Shown: one piece after another, positions 9,175 through 43,259 of the stretch
Layout of the letters: the number at the start of each line of letters is the position of its first letter
Position numbering within the stretch: the stretch's first letter is position 1
Origin: a virus
DNA length: 64,000 bases
Virus record (IMG/VR): IMGVR_UViG_3300029374_000315
Span: 17,327 to 81,326 of that record
Strand: one strand, 5' to 3'
The notes under the pieces: generated by a model
What the model saw: the letters and a program-made list of their open reading frames with translations, nothing else
Told to the model about the DNA's origin: nothing
Database searches by the model: none
Position numbers and translations under genes: made by a program

Positions 9175-10494
9175 ATGGCTACTAACAATCCTATGACCGT
9201 TATAACCTCTAAGCCCTTTGGTGCACTGAATGTGGATGTGTACCAGAATGATAAACATCAGTATTATATGACCCGTGAACAGATTGGGCGAGCACTGGAA
9301 TGTAAAGAACCTCGGAAATATATTGCAAAGATTCATGAGCGTAATGCAGACCGTCTTGACTCCTTATCAACTGTCGTCAATTTGACGACAGTTGAAGGTG
9401 GAATCACGAAAGAGCGTGAAATTATTTGTTACAGTTTGCGTGGTGTTATGGAAATCTGTCGTCTGTCTCGTCAGCCGAAGGCAGATGCGTTTATGGATTT
9501 CTGCTGGGATATTATGGAATCTCTGATGCGTGGTGATTCTGTTCTGGCTACTCCTAAAATGGATGCTGCATTGAGCAAGGAGTTTATTGATGTAAGACTT
9601 CACGCTCTGTTTGATAGTATGAAGAATCTTCAGAGTGAACTCGATTCCACCCGTAAAGATCTTAGTGAACAGATTGAGGAAGCTCGTGCTACTAGCAATG
9701 AAGCACTGAATGTGATTAGTAGCGTATCTCAGTGTGTCCATCAGATTAAGGACAAGCAGATGGATGATGCGATTCGTTCTACTAGAAACTTTACTCCTCG
9801 TAAGGATGTGGTGAGTGACTGGCGTAAGAAGATGTATGAACGTATCAATGTGATTGCGGAAATCAATGAGATGAAGGTTCAAGATGTGTTTCGTGATGTT
9901 TACGAATACATGAATAGTGTTTATACCTTCGTTATCGAGGAAGAGCGTAAAAAGTATTGCGCAAGAACTGGTCGTACTGGTTACATTCCTACGATTGATG
10001 TGGTCGAAGCAAGCACAATGTATAAGTCTATCTTTGGTGCTCTGGTTGAGGATCTGTATACCGAAGCGATCAATAAGAAGAAGGAAGAAGCTACTGAACG
10101 GAAAGCTTTGCCTGAAGCGAAAACTATTGAAGCAGCTCCTGAAGTGGCTGTCTGTGATGCTCCTGTGATTGAGGTGGAAGTTAATGAAGTTAAGTCTGAG
10201 CCGGTTGCGGAAGAAAAGCCCAAGAAACAGAGCGAAACGGCGAAGATTCTTATCCCGATTCTGTTACCTTTGGCAGAAAAGCTTAATGATAAGCCGCAAT
10301 ACAAGCACACTTACACTCTGATTTACGAACATATTGGTTATAAGAAGATGAATAATCTGTTTATTGCTTATGAAAAAGCTCACGGTAAAGCACCGAATCC
10401 GAAGACTAAGGTGTTTATTGAAAACGAAAAGAACCTCGCGTTGTTTAAGAAAGCCGTAAAGCAGCTGATGAAGGGGCAATTTGAAAAGAATTGA
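9175..10494 (+). CDS. phage antirepressor-like protein (Bro-N/KilA-N type N-terminal domain)
   Basis: N-terminal 110 aa resemble Bro-N domain proteins; long charged C-terminal region. Confidence 0.5.
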   Translation: MATNNPMTVITSKPFGALNVDVYQNDKHQYYMTREQIGRALECKEPRKYIAKIHERNADRLDSLSTVVNLTTVEGGITKEREIICYSLRGVMEICRLSRQPKADAFMDFCWDIMESLMRGDSVLATPKMDAALSKEFIDVRLHALFDSMKNLQSELDSTRKDLSEQIEEARATSNEALNVISSVSQCVHQIKDKQMDDAIRSTRNFTPRKDVVSDWRKKMYERINVIAEINEMKVQDVFRDVYEYMNSVYTFVIEEERKKYCARTGRTGYIPTIDVVEASTMYKSIFGALVEDLYTEAINKKKEEATERKALPEAKTIEAAPEVAVCDAPVIEVEVNEVKSEPVAEEKPKKQSETAKILIPILLPLAEKLNDKPQYKHTYTLIYEHIGYKKMNNLFIAYEKAHGKAPNPKTKVFIENEKNLALFKKAVKQLMKGQFEKN

Positions 10495-10758: not shown

Positions 10759-10983
10759 ATGATGAAATATGGAAATATAACATGCAAACGATGTGGTGTC
10801 ACGTGGTATGGGCCAAAGTGTGGAAAGCTTTATTGCGATAATTGCAGAAAGATTGTGGATAGAGAAAAGGATATTAGATGTAAAAATAAAAAGAAACATA
10901 AGCCGACATTTATTGAAATTGCAAAAATGGCAGATGCAGAAGGACTGTCCTATGGAAAGTATTGTTTAAAATATGGAATCTAA
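10759..10983 (+). CDS. zinc-ribbon protein
   Basis: CKRCG...CDNC motif; ATG after GAGGTA. Confidence 0.45.
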   Translation: MMKYGNITCKRCGVTWYGPKCGKLYCDNCRKIVDREKDIRCKNKKKHKPTFIEIAKMADAEGLSYGKYCLKYGI

Positions 10984-10996
10984 AGGAGACGCAAAT

Positions 10997-11842
10997 ATGA
11001 ACGCAGTACCTGAAAAGAACGAAAATAACGCAGTTGAGTTTAATCCGCCAAAGGTTGATCCTGCTCCCAAAGTGAAACATAACCAGGCGAAGAACTATAA
11101 TATCAAACGCAAGGAAGCTTGTAATGGAACGGTGCAGCCTATTAAAGATGTAGAGGATATTAAACGAATTTCGGAATATTTTTGGAATCGTGGGATGTAC
11201 CGTGATTGGTGTTTGTTTAATGTTGGTGTATGTACTGGTTTTCGTGCAAGCGATTTGCTTCGTTTTAAGGTTTCAGATGTTACAACGCAGAGGGTAAATG
11301 GAAAGTTGCAAGTAAATGCAAATGCAAAAATACGAATGAAGGAAAAAAAGACTGGAAAATACCGTATTGTTTTTCTTCCAGAATCTGCTTTGGAAGTGAT
11401 TTCTACTTATATCAATAAAGTTAAGCTCCATTATGACGATTGGCTTTTCCCGTCATGTAAAGGCAGCTCTCGCAATTCACTGAGGAGCACAGGTGGGACA
11501 TCAATTAGTAAAAAGACTGGAATTATGTATACACACGAGGCAAATCCAAAGGTAGCCGGGGAGCCGCTTGATGTGGATAGTTTTGGACGAATTATGAAAA
11601 AGGTTCAAAAGGATATGGCTCTTCCATATAATCTTGGAACACATAGTTGCCGTAAGACATTCGGCTATCAGTTTATGGTACAGCACCGTGATGATGTTAT
11701 GGCTCTGGCCTGGCTTCAGCACGCTTTGAATCATAGTAGTCAGGCAATCACTCTTCATTATATTGGTCTTGATTCAGAAGTGGATGAGAGATATTACTCT
11801 GGAATCAATTATGGTGTGAATACTCATAGTGAGAATTCTTGA
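10997..11842 (+). CDS. tyrosine site-specific recombinase (phage integrase/Xer family, minimal, no arm-binding domain)
   Basis: Catalytic residues in order: R in TGFRASDLL, K-hairpin, HSCRKTF (HxxR), ...LHYIG tyrosine. Confidence 0.8.
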   Translation: MNAVPEKNENNAVEFNPPKVDPAPKVKHNQAKNYNIKRKEACNGTVQPIKDVEDIKRISEYFWNRGMYRDWCLFNVGVCTGFRASDLLRFKVSDVTTQRVNGKLQVNANAKIRMKEKKTGKYRIVFLPESALEVISTYINKVKLHYDDWLFPSCKGSSRNSLRSTGGTSISKKTGIMYTHEANPKVAGEPLDVDSFGRIMKKVQKDMALPYNLGTHSCRKTFGYQFMVQHRDDVMALAWLQHALNHSSQAITLHYIGLDSEVDERYYSGINYGVNTHSENS

Positions 11843-17778: not shown

Positions 17779-18393
17779 TTGTTAACAAATCGTGAGCAAA
17801 GCGTTGCTATTGTGTGTATAATGTGCCTGCTGGCAGGGAATTTAGTAATAAAAGCGTTACCGAATACTGAAGTTGGAGGCACATATACATATTATAATGA
17901 TCAATCAGTTCATAATGTTACGCAGGCAACAAAAGAAGATGAGAACGATGAACCTACAATTTTTGTAAAGGAAATCGTTGAGACGAAGGTGGTGAACTTT
18001 AGCCAGGGTAAACATGAACTCACTGATGATGAGCGTGCTCTTGCAGAGCAGATTGTTGCTTGTGAAGCAGGTGCTGACAGTTTGGAAGGCCAGATGGCCG
18101 TTGCTCAATGTCTTTATGATTCCGCTGTACTTGATGGTCTAACCATCCAGCAGGTCTTTAAGAAGTATGGTTATAGTTCCTTATATAATAGGAAGGTTAC
18201 GGCAGAGAATGAGCTGGCTGTCTCTATGGTGTTTGACTATGGTGCTAAAATTTCAAACAAACCTATTCAATGGTTTGTAACCCCGACTGCAGCTCCCGGC
18301 AGTTGGCACGAGCGTGGAGCAACCTTTGCTGGACAATTTGGCGCACATAGGTTCTATTATGATTCGAAGTTGGTTGTGGATGATGCTGAGTGA
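17779..18393 (+). CDS. cell-wall hydrolase (SleB/CwlJ-like Hydrolase_2 domain) with N-terminal signal/anchor
   Basis: Hydrophobic N-terminus; C-terminal ERALAEQIVACEAG...QMAVAQCLYD...QFG..RFYY resembles SleB-type hydrolases; start codon (TTG) uncertain. Confidence 0.5.
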   Translation: MLTNREQSVAIVCIMCLLAGNLVIKALPNTEVGGTYTYYNDQSVHNVTQATKEDENDEPTIFVKEIVETKVVNFSQGKHELTDDERALAEQIVACEAGADSLEGQMAVAQCLYDSAVLDGLTIQQVFKKYGYSSLYNRKVTAENELAVSMVFDYGAKISNKPIQWFVTPTAAPGSWHERGATFAGQFGAHRFYYDSKLVVDDAE

Positions 18394-18447
18394 ATGGCAT
18401 CATCTAAAATTTTGATAAATAATACAACAAAAAGATGTGTAATATAT

Positions 18448-18476
18448 TGACTAAAACAAAAGGCTGTGTATAATAT
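18448..18476 (+). promoter_or_regulatory. sigma70-type promoter TTGACT-N17-TATAAT
   Basis: Exact hexamers with 17-bp spacer in a 90-bp intergenic gap before the gene at 18519. Confidence 0.6.
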
Positions 18477-18518
18477 ATCTTGAAAGTTGTTTGTGTGAGC
18501 GGAAGGCGGTTATTCTTG

Positions 18519-18845
18519 ATGAGCGATAGAAAGGTTTTGAAAGTTATACGGGTTGATGATTTTTTAAAGTACATAAGAAAAAAGCGAGTGTGGGTCTGCT
18601 TTGTTTGTAATGGTGTGGATATTCACATGATCTGCAAAAAGATTGACGACATTGGCGTAGAGACGGGTGGGATTGTTAATGGCGTGGGGTTCTTCGGAAA
18701 TGAGAGTCACATCGAGTTGCGACAAAAATGCCATGAAGTAAGGAGAATTGAACTTAGGTCTGGCTGTGCAGAGAAAGCGTATGAGATGATCTTCGATAAT
18801 ACCAGTGTGTTCGTATCAGAGAATCCTGAGTTGTACGGGCACTAA
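18519..18845 (+). CDS. hypothetical Cys/His-containing protein
   Basis: ATG after GGAAGGCGG, downstream of the promoter; 108 aa. Confidence 0.45.
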   Translation: MSDRKVLKVIRVDDFLKYIRKKRVWVCFVCNGVDIHMICKKIDDIGVETGGIVNGVGFFGNESHIELRQKCHEVRRIELRSGCAEKAYEMIFDNTSVFVSENPELYGH

Positions 18846-18864
18846 AAATATTTTCAAAAACCTC

Positions 18865-18893
18865 TTGACTTCTGTAATTGTATCCTGTATAAT
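18865..18893 (+). promoter_or_regulatory. sigma70-type promoter TTGACT-N17-TATAAT overlapping a reverse-orientation copy of the conserved 20-bp motif
   Basis: Exact -35/-10 with 17-bp spacer; -10 lies inside GTATCCTGTATAATGTAGCT. Confidence 0.65.
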
Positions 18894-18936
18894 GTAGCTA
18901 TGGAACGGAGCTACATCATTGTAGAGGAGAATGACT

Positions 18937-19356
18937 ATGGATAACAATATTGACCCAAAGGTCGGAGAGGTTTGGTTGGTTGATCTATCCAATGCGACAG
19001 GTCATCAGCAGCGCGGCATTCGACCGTTCGTTGTGACAAGTAACAACAAGCGTAACCTCTTCAGCCCAACAATCAAGGGGAATCCGTTATCTTCAAGAAC
19101 GTATAAGCGTTCTCCGGTTCATGTTCTACTCTCAAAGGAAGACTGTGAGTTCCTAGAGGTTGATAGTATCGTTCTCTGCGAAGAGACTGATACACTTAAC
19201 AAAGGACAGTTCATCAAGAAACTTGGTGTCTTGTCGGAGTGTCAGATGAATATGATCGCAATGGCAAGATGCAAGGATGAACCGTTTTTGCTCGCAGCGT
19301 TCCTGAGTGGCGTACAACATACTATAGATTTTCAGAATTTTGCCGCATTTGCTTGA
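18937..19356 (+). CDS. PemK/MazF-family endoribonuclease toxin-like protein
   Basis: GEVWLVDLSNATGHQQRGIRPFVVTS...NLFSPT...VHVLL...LEVDSIVLCEETDTLNKG closely parallels Kid/PemK and EndoA; GAGGAGA RBS. Confidence 0.8.
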   Translation: MDNNIDPKVGEVWLVDLSNATGHQQRGIRPFVVTSNNKRNLFSPTIKGNPLSSRTYKRSPVHVLLSKEDCEFLEVDSIVLCEETDTLNKGQFIKKLGVLSECQMNMIAMARCKDEPFLLAAFLSGVQHTIDFQNFAAFA

Positions 19357-19407
19357 TTTGTTCTCAGGTTTAATGGTACACTACATAATAAGAAGGAGTG
19401 TGCCACT

Positions 19408-20334
19408 ATGCTTACTGAAGAAAAAATCAAAGCTTTTGCCGAAAAGTATTCTGATAGAAGCGGTGAGTTTGTTATATCGACACTGCGTCACGTTATGGAC
19501 TATGAGGCTGAACATGGGTATGAGTTGTTTGACTTTACAAAAGATGATTTTGTAAAGATGTTTGCTAAATACAATTGGGTGAACTCAAGTCGGTCGTTCA
19601 GAAATGTAAAGTCGATAATTACAGGGTACATCAAAAGTGAGGATCGAGCGAGCATGTATGACTTAGCTGAATTCTCGGAAAGCGATGTGAGTTCAGACAA
19701 TATGTACGAGGACAAGTATTTTGCGTCAGTTGATGAGTTTGTTGATTTCTTGGATAAGTATGAAGAACCATATCAGATTCGTATGAATGTGATTGCTGCG
19801 CTGTACTGGATTGGCCTTACTTCTGAAGAAGTTTCTAATCTGACGATTAACGATGTTGACTTTGAATCACGTACTGTTTTGAATAAGACCGGTGTTGACG
19901 CGAGATTGATGAATATCATCAAGCAGTGTTATGAAATGAAACAATACGATGCTCCAAATATGGGTGGATACAGAACGTTTTATGTCATAAATGGTGATTA
20001 CATCCTTCGCAAAACAGAGGATAGAACTGGTGCAGACAGTGATTCAAGAATGTCTACAAACACAATTCATAGTTATTTCACGCGCTTGAATGATATTCTC
20101 GAAAGAAGATATCATTCAAAGGCTTTAGATCGAAGACATCTGACCAGAAACGGCGAGTATGTCAAGGTTTATAACTACTGTAAAACTCATCCAGAATTTA
20201 ATCTTGCAGAACTTAGTTTCGGAAATGGTAAAGATCCTCTTGCGGACATTATCGGAAGAAAGTGCAGCAAGGTTGCCTACATTAGTTTCCGGCAAGGATA
20301 CAAGGGCTGGATCGAATACTTCCACAAAAATTAA
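19408..20334 (+). CDS. hypothetical protein, possibly a divergent/inactive tyrosine-recombinase-like fold
   Basis: LTINDVDFESRTVLNKTGVDARLMNII resembles the start of integrase catalytic domains; RHRY tetrad not recoverable. Confidence 0.3.
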   Translation: MLTEEKIKAFAEKYSDRSGEFVISTLRHVMDYEAEHGYELFDFTKDDFVKMFAKYNWVNSSRSFRNVKSIITGYIKSEDRASMYDLAEFSESDVSSDNMYEDKYFASVDEFVDFLDKYEEPYQIRMNVIAALYWIGLTSEEVSNLTINDVDFESRTVLNKTGVDARLMNIIKQCYEMKQYDAPNMGGYRTFYVINGDYILRKTEDRTGADSDSRMSTNTIHSYFTRLNDILERRYHSKALDRRHLTRNGEYVKVYNYCKTHPEFNLAELSFGNGKDPLADIIGRKCSKVAYISFRQGYKGWIEYFHKN

Positions 20335-20339
20335 AAACA

Positions 20340-20362
20340 GGGGGCTTCGGCCCCTTGATTTT
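20340..20362 (+). terminator. rho-independent terminator (GGGGC-TTCG-GCCCC + T-run)
   Basis: 5-6 bp GC stem, UUCG tetraloop, then TTGATTTT. Confidence 0.7.
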
Positions 20363-20422
20363 AACATTGTAACTATATAACACAGGATACATAAAATACT
20401 ATTTGAATGGAGAATGATAACA

Positions 20423-22492
20423 ATGTCTGATTTCAAGAAATTTCGTGCACTGCTGCAAGACCACTTCAATGAGATGGTGAAGGGCGAAAACCCTCTGTTT
20501 ATCACCGATGCAGACGAGGATGAACTGTACAATCTGTATCTCGACAGCTTCCCGGCTGGCACGAATGAGTTGTTCCGTAAACGGCGCGAGTATGACTGTT
20601 CCTGCTGCCGCCGTTTCGTGAAGAATATCGGCAAGCTAGTAGCGTTTGATGATGGAAAAATGATTACTGTGTGGGATTTTGATGCAAAGTCTGTCAAGTA
20701 TCAGCCTGTTGTGGACGCCCTGGATGCTTATGTGAAGAGCCGCACTATTGTGAATCCGTACTTTGTCAGTCGCAATATGATTGGTTCTGGCGATATGTTC
20801 GGCACCGAGATGAACTACGAGTACGATGAAAATCACAAGGATGTGCATACTTGGGACCATTTCGCAGTCAAGATTCCGCAGCGTTTCATTGTGCGGCCTG
20901 ATGACGTTGCTACCAAGATGGCTCAGTGGCGTGATTCCGCAAACGTATATAAGCGTTCTCTGGAAGAACTGACCATGGATGCTGTTGATACTGTTCTGGA
21001 GCTGATTGCACAGAATAGTCTGTATCGTGGTAAGGAATTTGAAAACGTCGTCAAGGTATTCAAGACTAACAAAATCGAATACGACAATACTCCGACTGAG
21101 AACAAGGCCGCATATGTTTGGTTGGCACCGGCGTGGAGCGATATAGGACAGCTTCGTATCCGTAACACCGCTATCGGTACTTTGCTGGTAAATCTGAGTG
21201 AGGGTATGAACGTGGATGCAGCCGTTACTGCTTTCGAGAAAGTTGTTGCTCCTGCAAACTATAAGCGTCCCAAGGCGATTTTTACCAAGAAGATGTTGGA
21301 AGATGCAAAGAAGACTGTCACCGAACTTGGCTATATGAGCAGTCTGGGTCGTCGGTTCGCCACTCTGGATGATGTTACTATCAACAACATCATGTTCTGC
21401 AACCGTGATGCTGCCCCTCGTGTGATGGGCGCTGTGAATCCGTTTGAGGCAATGGCTAAGACTGTTGCGATTGATCCGAAGAAGTTTGGCCGTGCAGAAG
21501 AAATCGGTATCGATAAATTCATCAGGGATGTTCTTCCGACTGCGACTGGCTTAGAACTGTTCATGGAGAATCGTTTTGAGAAGAATATGATGTCTTTGAT
21601 TGCACCGCAGGATAAGAGTGCGCCGAGCATGTTCAAGTGGCCTAATGGTTTCAGTTGGGCGTATACAGGTAATATGGCAGACAGCGATATTCGCGAAAAC
21701 GTTAAGGCTGCTGGCGGCAAGATGGATGGTGTGTTGCGTTTCTCGATCCAGTGGAACGATGTGTCGGGTGAATGGGATGAAAACGATGAGGATGCTCATT
21801 GCATTGAACCTGATAAGAATCATATCTATTATGGCGATAAGTGGAATCCTCGTACTGATGGCCGCCTAGATGTTGATATCCGTTGTCCTAATCAGGGGAA
21901 AGCTGCGGTCGAGAATATCACCTGGCCTGACATCAAAAAGATGAAGGAGGGCGAGTACAGCTTCTATGTAAACTGCTACGCTAATCGTGGTGGTAAAACT
22001 GGTTTCCGTGCTGAAATCGAATTTGATGGCAACATCTACTCGTTTAACTATGATAAGCCGCTGCATCAGGGTCAGAATGTCGCCGTGGCAAAAGTCACGC
22101 TGAAGGATGGCAAATTCTCTATCAAGGAGCTGCTGCCCAGTTCTACTAGCACCCGCGAGATCTGGGGTGTAAATTCCAATCAGTTCGTGCCTGTGTCTGT
22201 TGTGATGTACTCTCCGAACTACTGGGATGAACAGACTGGTAATGGCAACCGTCACTACTTCTTCATGCTCAAGGATTGTGTTAACCCTGAAAAGCCCAAT
22301 GGCTTCTACAATGAATTCCTGAAGGCGGAACTGTTACAGCATAAGCGAGTATTTGAGGCTCTTGGTTCTCAGATGGCAGTTCAGTCGGTAGATGACCAGC
22401 TGTCCGGCGTTGGGTTCTCTGAGACGAAACATGATTCCTTTGTTGTCAAGGTTCAGGGCGCTACTGAGCGGGTTCTGAAAGTTGTTATTTAA
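20423..22492 (+). CDS. large hypothetical protein (690 aa)
   Basis: Long uninterrupted ORF; preferred ATG 9 nt after GGAGA; no recognisable catalytic motif. Confidence 0.6.
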   Translation: MSDFKKFRALLQDHFNEMVKGENPLFITDADEDELYNLYLDSFPAGTNELFRKRREYDCSCCRRFVKNIGKLVAFDDGKMITVWDFDAKSVKYQPVVDALDAYVKSRTIVNPYFVSRNMIGSGDMFGTEMNYEYDENHKDVHTWDHFAVKIPQRFIVRPDDVATKMAQWRDSANVYKRSLEELTMDAVDTVLELIAQNSLYRGKEFENVVKVFKTNKIEYDNTPTENKAAYVWLAPAWSDIGQLRIRNTAIGTLLVNLSEGMNVDAAVTAFEKVVAPANYKRPKAIFTKKMLEDAKKTVTELGYMSSLGRRFATLDDVTINNIMFCNRDAAPRVMGAVNPFEAMAKTVAIDPKKFGRAEEIGIDKFIRDVLPTATGLELFMENRFEKNMMSLIAPQDKSAPSMFKWPNGFSWAYTGNMADSDIRENVKAAGGKMDGVLRFSIQWNDVSGEWDENDEDAHCIEPDKNHIYYGDKWNPRTDGRLDVDIRCPNQGKAAVENITWPDIKKMKEGEYSFYVNCYANRGGKTGFRAEIEFDGNIYSFNYDKPLHQGQNVAVAKVTLKDGKFSIKELLPSSTSTREIWGVNSNQFVPVSVVMYSPNYWDEQTGNGNRHYFFMLKDCVNPEKPNGFYNEFLKAELLQHKRVFEALGSQMAVQSVDDQLSGVGFSETKHDSFVVKVQGATERVLKVVI

Positions 22493-23000: not shown

Positions 23001-23085
23001 GGGGATATGGTGAAATTGGCAGCCACGCTTGATTCAAACTCAAGTGTCGAAAGACGTATCGGTTCAAATCCGATTATCCCTACCA
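23001..23085 (+). tRNA. tRNA-Leu (anticodon CAA)
   Basis: Cloverleaf drawn by hand: acceptor GGGGATA/TATCCCT, anticodon stem CTTGA/TCAAG with loop TTCAAAC, long variable arm, T-loop TTCAAAT, CCA encoded. Confidence 0.8.
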
Positions 23086-23282
23086 TGAAGATCAGTTGTT
23101 CTAGCTAGATCGGGGATTGGCCGTTCATTGGCAAACGACAAGCATCACACCGGTAAATGATGCCGAGCCCAATAGGAAGGGGAATAAGGTGCAAGCCGAG
23201 TAGCTGTCGGACGAATACCCTTCAGGTAGCCAGTAAACCGGAATGTAAAACAAATGTTGGCTGTTTCTGATCTTCTATATAA

Positions 23283-23365
23283 GCTACCGTGGTGGAATGG
23301 CAGACACCGGAGACTTAAAATCTCCTGTCGGAAACGACGTGCCCGTTCAAGTCGGGTCGGTAGCA
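23283..23365 (+). tRNA. tRNA-Leu (anticodon TAA)
   Basis: Acceptor GCTACCG/CGGTAGC, anticodon stem GGAGA/TCTCC with loop CTTAAAA, long variable arm, T-loop TTCAAGT. Confidence 0.8.
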
Positions 23366-23372
23366 TTGATAT

Positions 23373-23448
23373 CCGGGTGTAGCTCAGTTGGAAGAGCGCG
23401 TGCTTTGGGAGCATGAGGCCGCAGGATCGTGACCTGTCACTCGGACCA
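23373..23448 (+). tRNA. tRNA-Pro (anticodon TGG), atypical T-loop
   Basis: Acceptor CCGGGTG/CACTCGG, D-arm GCTCAGTTGGAAGAGC, anticodon loop TTTGGGA, CCA encoded; T-loop reads ATCGTGA (non-canonical). Confidence 0.55.
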
Positions 23449-23536
23449 GCCCGAAAGGGCATGTAGAATTTTTCATTCACATTATTCCCAGCTCTCTGGA
23501 AACGGAGCAGTGTGACGTAGTAAGCTGGGTATATGA

Positions 23537-23607
23537 TGCGCCATCGCCAAGCGGTAAGGCAGAGGACTTTGACTCCTCCATCACAGGTTCAACCCCTGTT
23601 GGCGCAA
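23537..23607 (+). tRNA. tRNA-Gln (anticodon TTG)
   Basis: Acceptor TGCGCCA/TGGCGCA (U1:A72, as in bacterial tRNA-Gln), anticodon loop CTTTGAC, T-arm ACAGG-TTCAACC-CCTGT. Confidence 0.75.
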
Positions 23608-23612
23608 TTTAT

Positions 23613-23694
23613 GCGGATATGGTGGAATGGCAGACACGCCAGACTTAGGATCTGGTGCTTCGGCGTGTGGGTTCGATGCCCACTATCCGCACCA
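23613..23694 (+). tRNA. tRNA-Leu (anticodon TAG)
   Basis: Acceptor GCGGATA/TATCCGC, anticodon stem CCAGA/TCTGG with loop CTTAGGA, long variable arm, T-loop TTCGATG, CCA encoded. Confidence 0.8.
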
Positions 23695-23801
23695 CGATCA
23701 TAGAATGGTTGCGTACCGTTTTGTTGATCTCCTTTGACTGCCACTATTATTCCCAGCTCGCCAGTGATGGTGCAGTAGTGCTTTGTAAGCTGGGTGATTA
23801 T

Positions 23802-23876
23802 GCAGCGGTCGTACAATGGTTAGTATATCAGCCTTCCAAGCTGAGGATGAGGTTTCGACTACCTTTCGCTGCTCCA
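23802..23876 (+). tRNA. tRNA-Gly (anticodon TCC)
   Basis: Acceptor GCAGCGG/TCGCTGC, anticodon stem TCAGC/GCTGA with loop CTTCCAA, T-arm GAGGT-TTCGACT-ACCTT, CCA encoded. Confidence 0.7.
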
Positions 23877-24063
23877 ATCTCGTATGGGTAGGATTTTTAG
23901 CGGTCAAATCCGGCTGCGCCTGTGCGAGATACCACCCCGAAAGGGGCGAGATATAGGAAATGTGCATCACTGTTATTCCTTCCTCGTCTATATGATATAG
24001 ATGCAATAGTGTTTATAAGGAAGGTTCCCAGTTGAATAGTTGCAGCTGTTTGACTGGTAATAT

Positions 24064-24140
24064 GGGATAGTAGCTCAGTTGGTCAGAGCTGGCGGCTCAT
24101 AACCGCTTGGTCGCGAGTTCAAATCTTGCCTGTCCCACCA
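24064..24140 (+). tRNA. tRNA-Met/Ile2 (anticodon CAT), elongator-type
   Basis: Acceptor GGGATAG/CTGTCCC, D-arm GCTCAGTTGGTCAGAGC, anticodon loop CTCATAA, T-loop TTCAAAT, CCA encoded. Confidence 0.8.
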
Positions 24141-24282
24141 GCCCAATAGGGTATACATAAAATCTGCTAGAATTTTTGTTTTATAAGCGATGAAATAATA
24201 TGACGTTGATACGTCTATTATTTTTTTGCTCATTTTCGGAGATTTAGCTATGTAACACAGGATACTAAAAGGAGGTGGTTTG

Positions 24283-25822
24283 GTGAAACATTATGGAAGT
24301 ATTTGCGAGATTGATGGTTCTAAGATTGAGCCTGTCTCGTGTATCACTGGTGGTTCACCTTGTTAGCCAAGACCTTTCTATTGCCGGTAAGCGGGCAGGT
24401 TTGGCTGGAGAACGGTCTGGTCTATTTATGGAAATGATTCGTGTGATAAAGGAAATGAGGGATGCCACCAATGGAGAATGTCCAAAATTTGCAATCTGGG
24501 AAAATGTTAGAGGAGCACTTTCCTCAAACAACGGAGAAGACTTCCGATGCGTCTTGGAAGAATTTGCACACATCGTCGAAGCAGACGCTACAATTCCTAA
24601 ACCTTCGGGAAAAGGCGGAAAATGGTCTAAATCCGGCGCAATTTCCGGTAATGGATGGTCTTTGGCATGGAGACTCTTCGATGCTCAATATTGGGGAGTG
24701 CCCCAACGTCGTCAAAGAATCGCGCTTGTCATGGATTTTAGAGGACAACGTGCCGCAGAAATACTATTTGAGCGCACGGGCGTGCAATGGAATCCTGACG
24801 AGAGCATCCCGACGTGGCAAAGCTTTGCCAGAATTACTGAAGAATGCACTGCTAAAGATGATCGAGTGGTGGGAGAAAAAAGCTTTTGTATTGTCGGAAA
24901 CATGATTGACAGAGAAACCAACATGAACGGGACTGGTGTAAAAGAAGATACTGCTTTTACTATAAACACTATTGACCGTAATGCTGTTGCCTACACTTTA
25001 AAGATTCGTTCAGGATGCGAAGGTGGTGGCAAAGGCGCACTGGTACAGACCGAGAAGAGTGCAACGCTTTCTACATTGCAAGATCAAACGCTAATCTGCT
25101 TGGCAGACAACACCTCTTTACATAATTTAAAACAAAAGATTTGTGTCTTGAATGATCAGGGCGGTAGTGTAATGAATGTTTCTTACGATATTGTAGGAAC
25201 AATAAGAGCACAAGAGCATGGTCATCAACCAATTGTATTTGAGAGCCATAGTCAAGATGCTCGATACACCCAGCAAGGTAATACAAGTCCGGCTTGTACG
25301 GCTCAATGGGGAACTGGTGGCAATAATATGCCGCTTGTTGCCGAAAAGAAAGCCTTTGCAATGCAACGCATTGGTGAATACAAGGAAAGTGAACAAGCTA
25401 GTACGATGAAATCTCGTGACTACAAGGATGCTACTGACTTGATTGCAGAGAAGGAAACGAAGAATCTGCAATGGATTGTTCGTCGCCTGACTCCTGTTGA
25501 GTGTGAACGGTTACAGGGTTTTCCTGATGGATGGACCGATATTGGCGAGTGGTTTGATGAGAATGGTAAAAAGCACAAACCTGCCGATTCTCCTCGTTAC
25601 AAAGCACTCGGTAATTCAATCGCTTTGCCTCAGTGGTATTGGATTTTCCAGAAAATGAAACCGTATATCGGTGAAAATCCTACGCTTGGCAGTCTTTTCG
25701 ATGGAATTGGTGGCTTTCCGCTTGTCTTTGAAAGTATGTATGGTGATGGTACTGCTATCTGGGGATCAGAGATTGAACCGTTCTGCGTTGCAGTAACGAA
25801 GAAGCATTTCCCAGAAGACTAA
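24283..25822 (+). CDS. DNA (cytosine-5)-methyltransferase, circularly permuted; N-terminal catalytic segment in a different frame (frameshift/pseudogene or recoding)
   Basis: Frame A (GTG 24283) encodes ...EIDGSKIEPVSCITGGSPC then TAG at 24364. Frame B (24293..25822) continues QDLSIAGKRAG (motif IV), ENV (VI), QRRQR (VIII), RLTPVECERLQGFPDGW (IX), KALGNSIA (X), and at the C-terminus LFDGIGG (I) and SEIEPF...HFPED (II/III). Confidence 0.8.
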
Positions 25823-27820: not shown

Positions 27821-27891
27821 AAATTTTTTGCTTTTAACTAAGTAACACAGGATACCAATAAAAAAAAAGATTTAGAGAGGAATTTACATAT

Positions 27892-37150: not shown

Positions 37151-40100
37151 ATGTCAGATAATTTTGTAAATCTTCATGTACATACAGCGCAGGGTTCGTT
37201 ACTTGACTCTATTCTTACCGTCAAGGAACTTGTAAACTTTGCCAAAGAAAACGGCCAGAAAGCAATCGCGGTTACAGACCACGGAAAAATGCACTCTTTT
37301 GTTGACCAAGTTAAGGCTTGCAAGGAAGCAGGCATTAAGCCAATCATCGGCTGTGAGGTCTACGAAGTAGATAATCAGAGCGAAAAAGCTGATACGAAAG
37401 ACTATAAACAACCTCGTTATCATCTTGTTCTGCTGGCAAAAAACGAGACCGGTTTGAAAAATCTGTTCAAGGTTGTTTCAAATGCTTGCGTTGATGGCAT
37501 GTATAAAAAGCCTCGAACTTCTTTAAACATCATTGAACAGAACGAGTGGGGTAAAGGTATCATCTGTCTTACGGCCTGTCAAGTTGGTCGAATGAGTAGA
37601 TTGCTTGTTGATGGGAACGAGACTGAGGCATGGCAGTTATGGAACAAACTGAAATGGATCTTTGATGACGTGTTTATGGAAGTTCAGTCTCATGATACGC
37701 CAGATCAGGCTGAAGCTAATGCCAAAATTGCAGCTTTTATCAAAAAGTACAATCTTCCGTATACCATTACAACCGATGCTCATATGCTTTCCAAGGAAGA
37801 TGTTGATGCACATTCAGTTTTTGTAGAAATTGGAGAAGGACGAGAAGTTGGAGAAAGTTATGTTGACTGCTATCTTCAGACCGAAGACGATGTGCTAAGA
37901 ACACTTTCAAAGCAGTTTGATGAAGACTTCATCCGAGAAGGTTGCTCAATGTCTGTGAAAATTGCAGATATGGTTGACGATATTGATATTGGCCTTGGCC
38001 AGCCAAACCAGATGCCAGAAGTAAAAATTGAAGGTAAATTTGATTCGCATCTGGATTACCTGCGTTACCTCGTTTATTCTACTTTTGATGAAAAATTCGG
38101 ATGGATGAGTAAAGAAGAACAGCAAACCAGGCGGGACAGAATTGAGATGGAGCTTGACGTTTTGGAATATGTTGACTACATCGACTATTTCATCATGCTG
38201 TATATGCTTTGTAAGGTGGCCGATGAACGAGGTATCCCTCGTGGCTATTCTCGTGGTTCTGGTGCAAACTGTCTATGTCTATTTATGCTAAACGTTACGC
38301 AGATTGATTCTGTTCGTTGGGATCTTGACTTCTCTCGTTTTGCAAATAAGGGTCGTAAGAGTCTCGCGGACTTCGACTTTGATATTAGCCGTCGTCGTCG
38401 CAAAGAACTTGTTTCTATTGCAGAAGAGCTTTTTGGAAAAGAGAGTGTAGCACCAATCGCAACTTTTAATTCTCTGTCTACCAAGGTTGCCATTAAGGAT
38501 ATTGGAAAGGTACTGAACGAAGATCCAGAAAGCCCATATTATATGCAGATTCCGTATGAATTGCGAAATGAAGTTGCTAAGTTGATTCCGACCGTGAAAA
38601 CATTGGATGATCTCGGAGAAGAAGTTGAGAAGGAAGTTCTATTGAAGGACATTCTTGGAAAGAGCGAGCAGCTTTCTAATGTGTATGATAAGTTCCCTCT
38701 ATGGTTTAAGTACGTTATGCGGCTTGAAGGTTTACCGAAAAGTATGGGTCGCCATGCTGCAGGAACTTTGATTACGCCTAAGCCTGTCATTGAATATTGT
38801 CCTCTCTGTATGGATAGAGAAGGAAATCAGATGTGTCAGCTTGAAATGCACAATGCAATGGACGACTTATCATTGGTCAAGATGGATTTTCTTGGTCTTG
38901 AAAATTTGGACACGATTGATGACACATTAAAGATGGCCGGTCTAACTTGGAAGGATGTTGACATCAACCATCTCGATCTAAACGATAAGGCGGTCTACGA
39001 CGCAGTTTATAAGTCTGGACACACAATTGGTATTTTTCAGATGGAGTCTGCTGAAGCTCGAAAGATGTGTGTTGAAGCAAAATGTGACAACGCCGAGGAT
39101 ATCATTGTTGTGAATGCAGCAAACCGCCCTGGCACTAAGGACAGCTTCCCGACGTATTGTTCCAATAAGCTTCATCCAGAGACTATCAAACTACTTCATC
39201 CTGACATCAAACAGCTTTTTGCCAAGACTCAGTACATTCTTCTTTATCAGGAACAGGCTCTGGCAGTATTTCGTTATGCAGGATTCCCTGAAACTGAGGT
39301 TGACAATGCTCGTCGTGCCATTGGTAAGAAAAAGAAAGATGTTATGGCATCCTTGGAGGTCCAGTTTAGAGATGGTCTTCACAAAAAAGGATGGAACGAT
39401 TATCAAATTTCTGAGATGTGGGCATTGATCTTGAAACAGGCTTCTTATTCCTTCAATCGGGGCCACGCAGTTGCTTATGGACTTCTTTCTTACCTAACAG
39501 CATACTTGAAGACTCATTATACTGAGTATTTCATGGCTGCGTGTATGATTACTAAAGAAGATGATTCTGGCAAAATGGGTGTGTTCATCAATGAATGTGA
39601 CCGTCTACATATTCGGGTCCTTCCTCCAAGTGTTAACAGGTCTGATATGGAATTTAAGGCCGATGCGGAGAAGCACACAATTTTGTTTGGCTTGAAGGCC
39701 ATTAAGGGAATGGGCGAGAGTGTCGCATCAGGGGTGATTGCAGACCGTCCATATTCTGGATTGGCAGACTTTGTTCAGAGAGCAAACGGTGGAAAGATTG
39801 GCACTTCAAACGTTGTCAAGTTGATTAAGGCTGGAGCTATTCCAACAAGGGACAAGAGAAAAATCTTAATCACTTTTGCAAATATGGTTTTTGAGAATGA
39901 GTATAAAGAGAAGGGTTTTCATGAGATGGCATCTCTTCCCAAAATCTCTGTTCTTAAAGACGAATATGGGATTGACACAAATTATATTAAAGATAAGCCT
40001 ACTAGACTTGTTTTATATAATAAGGCACGAAGGGTGCGCTGGGAGGCAGATGCGGAGAACCGTAAGAAGGAAAAAGACAAGAAACGAAAAGATTTCATGC

Positions 40101-40498
40101 AGGCGTTTGCTGAAAAGTATATGCAAGACGAGCACATGTGGGAATTTGAAACCCTTTCAATGTTCTTAACTAGCAATCCAATTAAGGATGCTTGTACCTA
40201 TATTGATGCTTGTCTTGATACTGTAGAGGATGGCGGTGAGGCAACTGCTATTTGTGTCATCGTAGACATTCAAAAAAAGAAGGATAAACGTGGCAACCAG
40301 TTTGCATACTTACATGTTTACACGACAGGTGGTATTGTTGAAATGATTTGTTGGGCTTCCCAATATGCACGATATTCCAATTTGATCTCAAAGGGTAGTG
40401 ATCTTGCAATTCTTTGTAAGAGAAAAGAGAATTCGTACATTGTTGAGAAGATGAAGCCTTACAAGCAGTGGTTGCAAGACAGAGAGATAAAGCAATGA
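37151..40498 (+). CDS. dnaE: DNA polymerase III alpha subunit (DnaE-type, PHP domain)
   Basis: N-terminal PHP motif NLHVHTAQGSLLDS...AVTDHG; 1115 aa. Confidence 0.85.
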   Translation: MSDNFVNLHVHTAQGSLLDSILTVKELVNFAKENGQKAIAVTDHGKMHSFVDQVKACKEAGIKPIIGCEVYEVDNQSEKADTKDYKQPRYHLVLLAKNETGLKNLFKVVSNACVDGMYKKPRTSLNIIEQNEWGKGIICLTACQVGRMSRLLVDGNETEAWQLWNKLKWIFDDVFMEVQSHDTPDQAEANAKIAAFIKKYNLPYTITTDAHMLSKEDVDAHSVFVEIGEGREVGESYVDCYLQTEDDVLRTLSKQFDEDFIREGCSMSVKIADMVDDIDIGLGQPNQMPEVKIEGKFDSHLDYLRYLVYSTFDEKFGWMSKEEQQTRRDRIEMELDVLEYVDYIDYFIMLYMLCKVADERGIPRGYSRGSGANCLCLFMLNVTQIDSVRWDLDFSRFANKGRKSLADFDFDISRRRRKELVSIAEELFGKESVAPIATFNSLSTKVAIKDIGKVLNEDPESPYYMQIPYELRNEVAKLIPTVKTLDDLGEEVEKEVLLKDILGKSEQLSNVYDKFPLWFKYVMRLEGLPKSMGRHAAGTLITPKPVIEYCPLCMDREGNQMCQLEMHNAMDDLSLVKMDFLGLENLDTIDDTLKMAGLTWKDVDINHLDLNDKAVYDAVYKSGHTIGIFQMESAEARKMCVEAKCDNAEDIIVVNAANRPGTKDSFPTYCSNKLHPETIKLLHPDIKQLFAKTQYILLYQEQALAVFRYAGFPETEVDNARRAIGKKKKDVMASLEVQFRDGLHKKGWNDYQISEMWALILKQASYSFNRGHAVAYGLLSYLTAYLKTHYTEYFMAACMITKEDDSGKMGVFINECDRLHIRVLPPSVNRSDMEFKADAEKHTILFGLKAIKGMGESVASGVIADRPYSGLADFVQRANGGKIGTSNVVKLIKAGAIPTRDKRKILITFANMVFENEYKEKGFHEMASLPKISVLKDEYGIDTNYIKDKPTRLVLYNKARRVRWEADAENRKKEKDKKRKDFMQAFAEKYMQDEHMWEFETLSMFLTSNPIKDACTYIDACLDTVEDGGEATAICVIVDIQKKKDKRGNQFAYLHVYTTGGIVEMICWASQYARYSNLISKGSDLAILCKRKENSYIVEKMKPYKQWLQDREIKQ

Positions 40499-40740
40499 AT
40501 GATGTTTTATATAATGGTGTTTTATATACTATTGACGGAGAGGTTCTTTGTGAATTTCCTGAGTTTAAAATTGATTGTTACAAAGATAAAACTGTAATTA
40601 AGATACATTGTACGAATTGTTGCGTCGTTAGAAAAGTTCAGAAGTGGAAGTTTGACTGCGCAGAACAATGCGAGCTTACCACAAAATGGTTTTATTGCAG
40701 AGTGTGCGGAGGACTGACAGAATTTAGATTAGGTGCATAA
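40495..40740 (+). CDS. Cys-rich small protein
   Basis: ATG overlapping dnaE stop (ATGA); CTNCC...CRVCG. Confidence 0.45.
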   Translation: MNDVLYNGVLYTIDGEVLCEFPEFKIDCYKDKTVIKIHCTNCCVVRKVQKWKFDCAEQCELTTKWFYCRVCGGLTEFRLGA

Positions 40741-40755
40741 TAAGAGGGTTATAAA

Positions 40756-43086
40756 GTGGCAGATAAGAAATTTAATGAAAATATGATCCGTTGCTACATT
40801 AGGATAAAACGAGTCTTTTATCCGAAAGATGGGAGGGAGGTGGAGCCCGGCGGCTTCGCCACTTTCTCTGCCGAGGTGGTAAAAATCAAGCAGGGGAATC
40901 CTGTTATGAGTCGATACAGCGACCTCCGGCTAAAGGGCAACGTTCCTAGTCTCGATATGAATAAAACTTATTCGTTCTGTGGTGAGTATGTTCATCATGA
41001 AAAATTTGGCGATCAGTACAAAATCATCTATATGAATGAGTTTCAAGAGATCACTGACCCGGAAGAACAAAAAAGCTTTCTCCGTTTTATCTTGACTGAC
41101 CATCAGTTTGAGATGCTTTACGAAGCATTCGACAATCCGTATGAAATTATCAAGAATGGTGATATCAAGTCTCTTTGTACTGTTAGCGGTATTACGGAAG
41201 GTCGAGCACAAAAGATCATTGACTCTTTTGAAAACAACGTTGATAACAGTGAAGCGTACACAAAACTGGTTGAATACGGTTTGACCCCCAGTGCTATTGA
41301 AAAGCTTGTTCGTCAGTATCACGGTGCAGACACTCTGGTAAGAAAGATTGAGGAGAATCCTTACGTCCTGATCGATGATGCGTATGGCATTGGCTGGAAA
41401 AAAGCTGACACTCTTGCTTTGAATATGGGTTTAAAGCGCAATTCGCAATTCAGAATCGAAGCTTACGTCATGCATTTTCTTGCCGCCCGTGCCGAAGAAG
41501 GTAACTCTATTATCCCAGCAAACCAGACAATCAATAGCTGTATTAAGGAACTTGATTTGAACGAGGGTGACCAAGAAGTCATCAAAAGGGCATTTTTCCA
41601 TCTGCATGATGTTCGTGAAACGCTTTGGTGGAGTGATGACCGTCAGGAATTTGCTTTAACTAGAGTGTGGAATCTTGAAGATGAAATCGCAAAGGAAATC
41701 AAGCGACTGGCGGATGCACCTGTTAAACCGATTGGTCGAAACATGGATGTAGCAATCAATGAAGCTGAGGGTGCGCTTGGCATCGAGTATACTGAAGAGC
41801 AGAGAGATGCTATTAAAAAGGTATGTTCTAGCAACGTCTGTATCTTAACAGGCTACGGCGGAACTGGTAAAAGTACCGTTGTCGCTGGTGTTCTAAAGGT
41901 TCTTCGTGGTAAGTCTTTCGCTCAGACTGCACTCTCTGGTCGTGCCGCAGCTCGTATGCAGGAGATTACTGGTCAGGATGGTAAGACCATCCATCGTCTT
42001 CTTGGTTATGATATTGAGAATGGTGGTTTCATTCATAAGAAGGACAATCCTCTTGAAGAAGATATTATCATTCTGGATGAGACATCTATGGTTGGAGCTC
42101 AGTTGTTCTATGACTTGATTCAGGCAATCGAGACCGGAAAGCGATTCATCATGATTGGCGATGACGGCCAGCTTGAGAGTATCGGTATGTGTAACATTTT
42201 CAAGGATATGCTTGCATCTAAGGTTGTTCCTGTGGCTCGTTTGACTAAGATCCATCGTCAGGCGGCTAAGTCTGCAATTATCACGGAGAGCATCAAGGTT
42301 CGTAACGCTACACAATTGGTGCCTTATGGCTGGGCTGGTAGTGAGATTCGTGGTGAACTTCGTGATTTGGAGCTTGATATCTATAAAGACACAAGTGAAT
42401 CATTCAACCACATCATCAATCAGTACCGTACCTTATATAATAAGGTGGGGAATGATAGTGCGAAGATTCAGATTGTACTTCCACAGAAGCTGCGTGGTAG
42501 TATCTGTACTTATGAAGTCAATAATGCTATTCAGGAAATTGTGAATCCGAGTCGTGGTCAAGCAGAAGCAAAGGTCACAATCTATGGTGATGGCAAGGAT
42601 AGAGTGTATACTCTGCGTGAGGGCGATCAGGTCATCATTAACAAGAATAACTATGAGCTTCACACATACAATCTCAAGACAAAGAAAAAGGAAGAGAAAT
42701 GTCCGGTGTTCAATGGAAACCGTGGCATTATCCGAAAGATTGAGAGTAGTTTTATCCTGGTTGATTTTGACCAGTGGGGAACGATATTTATTCCTCATTA
42801 TTTTGGTGGGAATAACATCTGGGCAACACTTGAACTCGCTTATGCTTTGAGTTGCCATAAACTGCAGGGCAGCGAAGCTCCGTATGTGATTGTCGGTATG
42901 GACAACTCTGCATACCTGATGTTAACGAGAGAATGGCTCTATACGGCCATCACTCGTGCCAAGAAGTATTGTGTGATTTGCGCTGAAACCCATGCTCTTG
43001 ATCGAGCAGTAAAGACTTCGAGAGTACCGTACAAGCGGACGTTCTTGAAGGAATTTTTACGGAAAGAATTTTCAGAAAAGCGTTGA
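40756..43086 (+). CDS. RecD2-like superfamily-1 DNA helicase
   Basis: Walker A TGYGGTGKST, Walker B IIILDETSMV, HhH-like SGITEGRAQKII; 776 aa. Confidence 0.8.
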   Translation: MADKKFNENMIRCYIRIKRVFYPKDGREVEPGGFATFSAEVVKIKQGNPVMSRYSDLRLKGNVPSLDMNKTYSFCGEYVHHEKFGDQYKIIYMNEFQEITDPEEQKSFLRFILTDHQFEMLYEAFDNPYEIIKNGDIKSLCTVSGITEGRAQKIIDSFENNVDNSEAYTKLVEYGLTPSAIEKLVRQYHGADTLVRKIEENPYVLIDDAYGIGWKKADTLALNMGLKRNSQFRIEAYVMHFLAARAEEGNSIIPANQTINSCIKELDLNEGDQEVIKRAFFHLHDVRETLWWSDDRQEFALTRVWNLEDEIAKEIKRLADAPVKPIGRNMDVAINEAEGALGIEYTEEQRDAIKKVCSSNVCILTGYGGTGKSTVVAGVLKVLRGKSFAQTALSGRAAARMQEITGQDGKTIHRLLGYDIENGGFIHKKDNPLEEDIIILDETSMVGAQLFYDLIQAIETGKRFIMIGDDGQLESIGMCNIFKDMLASKVVPVARLTKIHRQAAKSAIITESIKVRNATQLVPYGWAGSEIRGELRDLELDIYKDTSESFNHIINQYRTLYNKVGNDSAKIQIVLPQKLRGSICTYEVNNAIQEIVNPSRGQAEAKVTIYGDGKDRVYTLREGDQVIINKNNYELHTYNLKTKKKEEKCPVFNGNRGIIRKIESSFILVDFDQWGTIFIPHYFGGNNIWATLELAYALSCHKLQGSEAPYVIVGMDNSAYLMLTREWLYTAITRAKKYCVICAETHALDRAVKTSRVPYKRTFLKEFLRKEFSEKR

Positions 43087-43220: not shown

Positions 43221-43259
43221 GGCTTTAACTATATAACACAGGATGCTCAAGGAGGTTTT

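Follow-up and report, generated by a model that had tools for sequence, protein, structure and literature searches.

The SPbeta-type phages of Bacillus have been found, in work from 2022 to 2026, to choose lysogeny via the MazF endoribonuclease of their host; MazF promotes the lysogeny of phi3T and SPbeta "by an uncharacterized mechanism", and how it does so was left open (PMC10769878). In these phages the proteins AimX and YosL inhibit MazF, while proteins of the sro operon bind the antitoxin MazE and thereby release MazF (PMC10769878; bioRxiv 10.1101/2023.04.27.537455), and MazF degrades most phage messenger RNAs (mRNAs) and spares the sro operon (bioRxiv 10.1101/2025.11.27.690993). The master repressor of SPbeta, named YopR, MrpR or SroF in different studies, has a recombinase fold and binds the SPBRE sequences, including one at the promoter of its own operon (PMC10516654). 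MazF enzymes of B. subtilis, Listeria and S. aureus cleave RNA at the strict hexamer U^ACAUA (bioRxiv 10.64898/2026.08.06.743204). Here we describe a mazF gene (18937..19356, + strand) encoded by a phage itself, in a stretch of 64,000 nucleotides (nt; positions 17,327 to 81,326 of the IMG/VR virus record IMGVR_UViG_3300029374_000315), which is called the window throughout and to which all coordinates refer unless stated otherwise. The gene directly downstream (19408..20334, + strand) encodes a homologue of the MrpR/SroF (YopR)-type master repressor, a protein of 308 amino acids with a tyrosine-recombinase-like fold.

We conclude that this mazF belongs to the module that governs lysis and lysogeny in a temperate, SPbeta-like phage of the human gut (about 131 kb), and its product probably helps to decide between dormancy and killing. 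Our preferred reading, to which we assign a probability of roughly 0.55, is that the phage carries its own form of the circuit through which SPbeta-type phages use host MazF for lysogeny, and that mazF is not one half of a toxin-antitoxin pair. Like the circuits of SPbeta and phi3T (PMC10769878; bioRxiv 10.1101/2023.04.27.537455; PMC10516654), the module has a MrpR/SroF-type repressor with a recombinase fold, a repeated operator (here an operator-like element) at several promoters including that of the repressor operon, a repressor gene free of UACAUA and a collinear replication module, and it would link MazF activity to lysogeny. Unlike those circuits, its MazF is encoded by the phage and lies inside the repressor unit; no homologue of AimR, AimP, AimX, YosL, SroA/B or SroE occurs in the window (SroE occurs in one related lineage only, L177), and no description exists for SPbeta of a cut site placed within a hairpin 5' of the repressor gene. 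A literature search found no description of a phage-encoded MazF in such a repressor operon.

The assignment of the gene product (139 amino acids) to the MazF/PemK-type endoribonucleases, proposed in a preliminary description made from the letters of the window alone, was borne out by every comparison of sequence and fold. The profile search suggested at the time, against the Pfam family PemK_toxin (PF02452), gave an E value of 5.1e-19 and 68.9 bits over profile positions 1-102 of 109, the curated cut-off being 23.1 bits; the match to PHROG 1936 ("MazF-like growth inhibitor") has an E value of 7.5e-21, and among the sequences of solved structures the protein matches S. aureus MazF (1.7e-13) and B. 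subtilis EndoA (~7e-10). An AlphaFold2 model built on 23 relatives (predicted local distance difference test, pLDDT, 85.6) shows the SH3-like beta-barrel MazF/CcdB fold with a C-terminal helix and superposes on the S. aureus and B. subtilis MazF structures with template modelling scores of 0.82-0.88 (Foldseek, normalised to the target); the top 50 Foldseek matches in the PDB are all MazF-family toxins (MazF, MoxT, YdcE and other mRNA interferases), with E values down to 2.5e-11. B. subtilis EndoA/NdoA and S. aureus MazF thus share the fold, 29-35% identity and the positions of the catalytic Arg and Thr/Ser. In the HMMER alignment Arg29 (codon 19021-19023) and Ser52 (codon 19090-19092) fall on Arg24 and Thr47 of S. 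aureus MazF (Arg25 and Thr48 in B. subtilis MazF), the two residues essential for catalysis in the S. aureus enzyme (PMC4041440); Arg29 is invariant among 23 aligned family members, which all have Ser or Thr at position 52. With this dyad intact, the phage MazF is predicted to be catalytically competent. The ratio of nonsynonymous to synonymous substitution rates (dN/dS) is ~0.05 for mazF in comparison with close relatives, a strong purifying selection which argues against a decaying remnant. An alternative ATG lies at 18931; the ribosome-binding site GAGGAG at 18923-18928 suits the start at 18937 better.

Judged by its sequence, the phage MazF falls into a small subfamily specific to phages, whose members share a conserved C-terminal extension (~30 residues; residues ~110-139, coded by 19264-19353), in which A110, R111, D114, E115, P116, L118, F122 and F132 are invariant and which the AlphaFold2 model renders as two extra helices (pLDDT ~72-85). 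Even L177, at 35% MazF identity, has kept the extension. In a search of a library of 1.84 billion representative proteins, 2445 proteins match the phage MazF at E<=1e-3 and about a dozen clusters, no more, have alignments that continue through the extension; most matches from other phages end near query residue ~110 and therefore are without it. The chromosomal mazEF systems of B. subtilis and S. aureus differ in that no MazE gene accompanies the phage-encoded mazF and in the ~30 additional conserved C-terminal residues, and also in one hydrophobic strand, which reads IVAAIT in chromosomal MazF and is replaced by IKGxxLS/T in the phage MazF, where Lys47 is invariant and Gly48 nearly so. The PHROG 1936 genes of other phages (32-39% identical), such as Enterocloster phage PMBT24, Coprococcus NatCom phages and Psychrobacillus phage Perkons, are also solo genes with no annotated antitoxin, and they adjoin tail, lysis or replication genes, not a MrpR-like repressor.

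The association of mazF with the repressor gene is nearly fixed. MazF proteins 95-100% identical to that of the window are encoded at 80 close loci on IMG/VR contigs of ~110-140 kb, most of them out of a single data set of the human gut, and a mrpR-like gene follows mazF at 79 of these; the same order is found at 9 of 10 further, diverged loci, and thus in 10 of the 11 lineages formed by these loci and the window. Across lineages the MazF proteins are 59-75% identical (81% in the most closely related pair compared), and the identity of the repressors drops to 21-25%. In L177, the source of MazF family member P0035 (found at 35% identity to its query), a small open reading frame (ORF), MazF, a YopQ/SroE homologue (E value 3e-12) and a MrpR-like gene follow one another, which places MazF inside a repressor operon of the sro type. 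Searches of viral contigs with the MazF alignment retrieved the same close relatives only, and a scan with P0008 retrieved nothing. The protein of 108 amino acids encoded upstream of mazF is found on contigs up to 349 kb, a size that suggests integrated prophages.

In the window the repressor gene begins 51 nt past mazF with no terminator in between, so the two genes appear to be co-transcribed. Six of seven repressor family members match the Pfam family MrpR_N_CB (best E value 8.8e-14), close relatives match MrpR_C_cat, and a profile of the repressor family aligns with SPbeta YopR from end to end (hhalign probability 95%, E value 3e-8, 252 columns), as expected of the repressor in an SPbeta-type (sro, yopMNOPQR) module. 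The same profile did not retrieve MrpR from the PDB sequences, and a tblastn search of GenBank phages with the repressor found nothing. The gene is under selection (dN/dS 0.07-0.12 against close relatives). This repressor was overlooked in the preliminary description, and the view taken there of mazF as a solo toxin is probably wrong.

Kinship with SPbeta extends beyond the repressor. The genes 3' of the module run in the same order as yorI-yorJ-yorK-yorL in the replication module of SPbeta, the RecJ-like protein of the window being 35% identical over 574 residues in the SPbeta comparison, and relatives carry members of the Pfam families YorF and Phage_SPbeta_YorH adjoining the module; we therefore regard the window as part of a distant SPbeta-like phage. 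The sroA-E accessory genes (YopM, YopN, YopO, YopP and YopQ, which include MazE binders, an HTH protein and an integrase-like protein) gave no tblastn match in the window at E<0.1, and no similarity to AimR, which together with AimP marks an arbitrium system, was detected within the 64-kb window of a phage of ~131 kb in full. The parallel with the arbitrium phages is therefore partial.

If mazF were instead the toxin of a conventional type II mazEF or pemIK pair, an antitoxin gene would be expected beside it. None with an AbrB, ribbon-helix-helix (RHH) or Phd-type domain was found adjacent and co-transcribed, nor were MazE or YosL homologues found in the 64-kb window at E<0.1, and the earlier statement that no MazE, PemI or AbrB-type gene adjoins mazF holds. 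The candidate partner named at that time was the small ORF 5' of mazF (18519..18845, + strand; 108 amino acids), a fast-evolving gene with a predicted PH-like/YojF-like beta fold and, as noted then, a promoter of its own. In such a non-canonical type II pair the 108-amino-acid protein would be the antitoxin and the pair would serve prophage addiction or abortive infection. A small ORF does lie immediately 5' of mazF throughout the lineages surveyed, as in mazEF operons; its dN/dS of 0.12-0.17 against close relatives marks it as a real gene (the three values together indicate that the small ORF, mazF and the repressor gene are all functional), and its message bears a MazF-type site in 9 of 11 lineages, which would allow a feedback in which the toxin destroys the message of its antitoxin. 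Against this stand its separate promoter, a gap of 91 nt to mazF with no translational coupling, and a predicted fold that is not of the AbrB, RHH or Phd type. Searches of Pfam, PHROGs, NCBIfam, PADLOC and PDB sequences gave no convincing match for the 108-amino-acid protein, only unrelated hits below threshold, none of them antitoxin-like, and PADLOC had no match for any of six proteins tested. Moreover, two lineages with MazF proteins 81% identical have upstream proteins only 27% identical; between the protein of the window and the L081 counterpart the identity is 25%, and counterparts elsewhere are unrecognisable, in comparison with 59-75% for MazF. The small protein diverges alongside the repressor and thus tracks the repressor, not MazF, and in L061 only the last 19 codons of the small ORF are left, with promoter, mazF and repressor all kept. 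An antitoxin role for this protein is therefore, in our judgement, decidedly improbable. The earlier idea of a Cys/His protein was dropped, as the cysteines are not retained in relatives of 22-53% identity and a conserved zinc site is unlikely for that reason.

The antitoxin might also reside elsewhere: in the downstream MrpR-like repressor (a toxin-first order), in a host MazE, or in the C-terminal extension acting as a built-in inhibitor, after the manner of fused, self-inhibited toxin-antitoxins (CapRel-type logic), which may be one possible role of that extension. With a host MazE as the partner, the phage MazF would soak up MazE and free the host MazF, as SroA and SroB do; these two proteins activate host MazF through MazE binding (bioRxiv 10.64898/2026.08.06.743204), and cross-neutralisation of MazF by a non-cognate MazE is documented (PMC10893535). 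The repressor, a putative DNA-binding autoregulator beside a toxin, is placed as an antitoxin would be, and the extension is conserved down to 35% identity and modelled with a pLDDT of ~72-85. The repressor, however, diverges far faster than MazF, is split from mazF by another gene in one lineage and is missing in another, and the extension on visual comparison bears no likeness to the MazF-binding helix of MazE, AimX or YosL. We regard these alternatives as unlikely.

The reading of mazF as part of a lysogeny circuit is supported by the distribution of the hexamer UACAUA (TACATA in the DNA, counted on the mRNA strand). In the six lineages compared initially (the window, L081, L083, L170, L176 and L177) TACATA is absent from both the mazF and the repressor ORFs, occurs once in the spacer between them, and occurs in every upstream small ORF (at 18570-18575 in the window); it is the sole hexamer of 4096 found in all six upstream ORFs. 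The pattern predicted from these six was then checked on five new lineages: neither mazF nor the downstream ORF contains TACATA in any of the five, and the spacer contains it in all four with an adjacent repressor. Taken together, all 9 lineages with an adjacent repressor have a single copy in the spacer, TACATA being the top hexamer for presence in the spacer, and the upstream ORF has the site in 9 of 11, tied at the top of the 4096 hexamers. The upstream sites lie at differing positions and in differing reading frames, and hence are not inherited protein motifs. Among 196 equally common hexamers TACATA is the only one missing from all 11 pairs of mazF and downstream ORFs, a typical hexamer of such frequency being present in 6-7 of the 11. 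The ten repressor ORFs (11.1 kb), which at 21-25% identity were treated as essentially independent, contain none (6.3 expected), and of 201 hexamers of equal frequency no other is missing from all ten. Among the close relatives all 79 evaluable loci have no TACATA in mazF, one in the spacer and none in the repressor gene. In SPbeta, used as a control, yopQ and yopR (2.4 kb) are likewise without TACATA in a surrounding + strand that has 1-1.5 per kb. The U^ACAUA specificity of the B. subtilis and S. aureus enzymes accordingly fits the sequence statistics of the phage module, and the cut-site statistics in turn support the assumption of that specificity for the phage MazF.

Several other observations on this hexamer are recorded here. 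In the SPbeta locus examined (40001-90000, L085) yopQ and yopR lie at 39874-42257 of the locus, and one TACATA (38467) lies 22 nt 5' of the yopO start. In the window, further copies at 20388, 26700, 27885 and 59577 are found 7-26 nt 5' of gene starts, beside ribosome-binding sites, and one such copy abuts a copy of the 21-nt element described below. The pentamer UACAU ranks third of 1024 for enrichment on the mRNA strand under a Markov model (z 4.4) and only 36th against synonymous-codon shuffles (z 3.1), a suggestive result not used as evidence. A copy of UACAU in the mazF leader (18912) was considered and dropped, as it is not conserved in relatives. A search of the window mRNA strand for a genome-wide, strand-specific depletion of any MazF site found none that was convincing, and no pentamer was significantly depleted from the mazF-mrpR unit in six lineages after correction for multiple testing.

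These statistics also bear on the view, raised in the preliminary description, that a solo MazF shuts off the host or excludes competing phages: as a weapon with no role in lysogeny, it would degrade host mRNA early in infection or abort other phages in lysogens. The context of the gene points to neither use. In their favour, the mazF promoter is of a consensus, early type, genes annotated as "MazF-like growth inhibitor" are found alone, among structural or replication genes, in many unrelated phages, and nearby variable cassettes (an RNA ligase/kinase fusion) and tRNAs resemble counter-defence functions. A weapon would, however, leave unexplained the fixed linkage of mazF and repressor across lineages, the purge of UACAUA from the repressor gene and the placement of the site in a hairpin that blocks the Shine-Dalgarno sequence. 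Nor is the phage mRNA strand depleted of UACAU(A), which is mildly enriched (103 observed, 75 expected; 82 and 63 with codon shuffling), so that a take-over nuclease would hit phage mRNAs too. We consider this explanation quite unlikely.

The spacer site has a further property that fits a role in repressor synthesis. In the window, a predicted hairpin (19374..19405, + strand) sequesters the Shine-Dalgarno sequence of the repressor gene (AAGGAG, 19393-19398), which pairs with the upstream arm, and UACAUA (19382-19387) occupies the top of the stem and the loop. Across lineages the site lies 4-18 nt 5' of the repressor Shine-Dalgarno sequence, and in the predicted folds a pyrimidine-rich arm pairs with the Shine-Dalgarno region and leaves UACAUA in the loop or next to it; the arm sequences themselves vary between lineages. 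Opening the repressor ribosome-binding site of the window is computed to cost 11.45 kcal/mol, the highest value among the 52 window genes with a recognisable ribosome-binding site (median 3.2, 90th percentile 6.2 kcal/mol). A modelled cut at U^ACAUA lowers the cost to 2.3 kcal/mol, and a control cut 40 nt further 5' leaves it at 11.45 kcal/mol. The means of the nine lineages are 8.5 kcal/mol uncut, 3.1 cut and 8.0 after the control cut, and the uncut cost exceeds 7.2 kcal/mol in seven of the nine. No known RNA family of Rfam was matched in 18350-20450.

The promoters around the unit complete its architecture. A consensus sigma-A-type promoter, P2 (TTGACT-17-TATAAT, 18865..18893, + strand, 11 of 12 consensus matches), precedes mazF, as had been claimed, and would serve both mazF and the mrpR-like gene; its -35 and -10 boxes do not vary among 12 relatives whose flanking genes have diverged by 8-22% in nucleotide sequence, and P2, the 21-nt element overlapping it and the mazF leader hairpin are together 96% identical in those relatives. 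The leader hairpin (18889..18919, + strand; arms 18889-18899 and 18909-18919) is kept in relatives. The 21-nt element, GTATCCTGTRTWAYNTAGYTA, overlaps the P2 -10 box at 18880..18900 (+) and recurs at 20370..20390 (-), between the terminator and the next gene, at 24245..24265 (-), 5' of a C5-methylase gene, at 27835..27855 (-), 5' of an AAA_24 (YorG-like) gene of the replication module, and three times in one intergenic region at 43098-43118 (+), 43157-43177 (-) and 43226-43246 (-), where the first copy overlaps the -10 box of a TTGACA-17-TATAAT promoter. The seven copies in the window (0.02 expected) are all intergenic and occur in both orientations. The element is unrelated in sequence to SPBRE, and by analogy with the binding of MrpR we take it to be the candidate operator of the MrpR-like repressor and the counterpart of SPBRE; other lineages have different repeats at the two places flanking the mazF-repressor unit.

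Before the repressor gene lies a weak internal promoter-like site, read by eye (TTGATT-18-TACACT, 19353..19382, + strand), and a promoter scan gave an overlapping site, TTCTCA-17-CATAAT, at 19361-19389; sites of the form TTGnnn-16/18-TAnnCT were seen by eye at the equivalent place in other lineages. Transcripts from this internal promoter would begin at or after UACAUA and would lack the blocking arm. The unit is closed by a hairpin resembling an intrinsic terminator (20339..20355, + strand).

From these elements a circuit can be proposed. On infection the strong P2 would yield a mazF-mrpR transcript in which, according to the predicted folds of seven of nine lineages, the ribosome-binding site of the repressor is locked in the hairpin. 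The phage MazF, and possibly the host MazF too, would cut the lone U^ACAUA in the hairpin, if it shares the specificity of the Bacillota enzymes, and the cut would strip off the blocking arm and allow translation of the repressor, as the in silico energies suggest. The coding sequence of the repressor would be immune, since its ORF carries no UACAUA, and other phage messages, including that of the upstream small ORF, carry sites and would be cut. Accumulated repressor would then bind the 21-nt element at the P2 -10 box and at lytic promoters, as MrpR does at SPBRE, and turn off mazF and the lytic genes, after which the weak internal promoter may sustain the repressor from a transcript without the blocking arm. 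A dedicated antitoxin would be unnecessary because expression of mazF would be self-limiting and the six-base specificity not broadly toxic. We put forward this ribonuclease-gated establishment switch, in which synthesis of the repressor requires the MazF cut and the repressor then shuts the mazF promoter, only tentatively, and think it more apt to be wrong than right in its particulars. A comparable idea, a MazF cut just 5' of the start region that alters translation, underlies the leaderless-mRNA model of E. coli (Vesper et al. 2011), a contested proposal in which mRNA processing by MazF reportedly alters translation. The predicted cut differs from it by keeping the Shine-Dalgarno sequence and removing the arm that pairs with it, and it implies no specialised ribosomes.

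A large and abundant family of human-gut phages thus carries a MazF joined to a master repressor, and a specific mechanism of MazF-driven lysogeny is suggested by where the cut sites lie and by the hairpin around one of them. If the ribonuclease-gated switch is true, it would explain in molecular terms how lysogeny is promoted by MazF in SPbeta-type phages, and it would be a case of a "toxin" domesticated into a self-limiting regulator without an antitoxin. The mechanism, if correct, would extend MazF-driven lysogeny control beyond Bacillus to phages of gut Firmicutes. It would also account for many phage mazF genes without an antitoxin, and it would constitute a compact system of one promoter, one nuclease, one hairpin and one repressor that links RNA cleavage to the lysis-lysogeny decision. 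The finding also advises caution against annotating such mazF genes as "orphan toxins" or "growth inhibitors".

A number of observations weigh against the lysogeny-circuit reading or against parts of it. With regard to gene content, L195 has a methylase gene, not a repressor gene, 3' of mazF, two scans of 185,579 species-representative genomes found no copy, and no AimR, AimX, YosL, SroA or SroB homologue was found in the 64-kb window. With regard to cleavage specificity, the identity to MazF enzymes of measured UACAUA specificity is only ~29-35% and the loops near the RNA differ (GHQQRG for GSEQGG, CEE for LEQ), so that the phage MazF may have another specificity; the avoidance of TACATA could stem from the host MazF instead of the phage enzyme. 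The mazF ORF alone is too short to inform, as 29 of 201 comparable hexamers are likewise absent from it, and the upstream-ORF site was found in only three of the five new lineages (p ~0.05 alone). The hairpin is weak or unclear in two of nine lineages (L176, 3.5 kcal/mol; L194, 2.1 kcal/mol), in L193 the ribosome-binding site is buried and the modelled cut frees it only partly, and in three lineages UACAUA itself is predicted to be partly paired. Finally, the spacer TACATA overlaps or abuts the -10 box and the start of the internal promoter, so its conservation could be partly related to the promoter.

The surroundings of the module show some further features. The small ORF is preceded by a promoter-like sequence, P1 (TTGACT-16-TATAAT, 18447..18474, + strand), which lies inside a tandem 25-nt direct repeat (TACAACAAAAAGATGTGTAATATAT at 18423-18447 and TAAAACAAAAGGCTGTGTATAATAT at 18452-18476). 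The repeat may bind a different regulator, and one other similar site occurs in the window, at 14809. In several other lineages a small gene of the HTH_3 (Cro/CI) type is divergent from the small ORF/mazF/repressor unit, as in a classical genetic switch (L083 5043-5306, L192 3131-3349, L193 3112-3333 and L195 1220-1477, all on the - strand); at that place in the window no divergent HTH_3 gene was found, and all window genes are on the + strand. Upstream of mazF, a Phage_integrase-family gene (289 amino acids, 10973-11842) and a gene for a protein of 439 amino acids with a weak, sub-threshold Bro-N match (9175-10494), both 7-9 kb 5' of mazF and without TACATA, may form part of an extended lysogeny region. 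A nearer ORF of 204 amino acids (17779-18393), 75-100% identical among close relatives, has an N-terminal hydrophobic segment, weak similarity to Hydrolase_2 (cell-wall hydrolase) and a match to PHROG 18750.

On the 3' side of the repressor gene is a slot for a variable cassette (20414-22492 in the window; also seen at the loci L001, L081, L181 and L194). The window cassette encodes a protein of 692 amino acids that matches PHROG 1735, with no Pfam family, no PDB match and a far-sub-threshold NCBIfam hit. In 64 of the 80 close relatives the cassette instead encodes a protein of 737-754 amino acids in which polynucleotide kinase, phosphatase and T4-type RNA ligase are fused, an enzyme that would mend breaks with 2',3'-cyclic phosphate and 5'-OH ends left by nucleases like MazF. 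About 2.7 kb 3' of the repressor gene lie seven tRNA genes (Leu-CAA, Leu-TAA, Pro-TGG, Gln-TTG, Leu-TAG, Gly-TCC and Met-CAT; 23001-24140), followed by the C5 cytosine methylase gene at 24293-25822. Palindromic sites of the restriction type are strongly avoided on both strands: GATC occurs 148 times (312 expected) and CCWGG 16 times (68 expected), and the hexamers CTTAAG, TCTAGA, GCCGGC, CGGCCG and TCCGGA are absent from the window.

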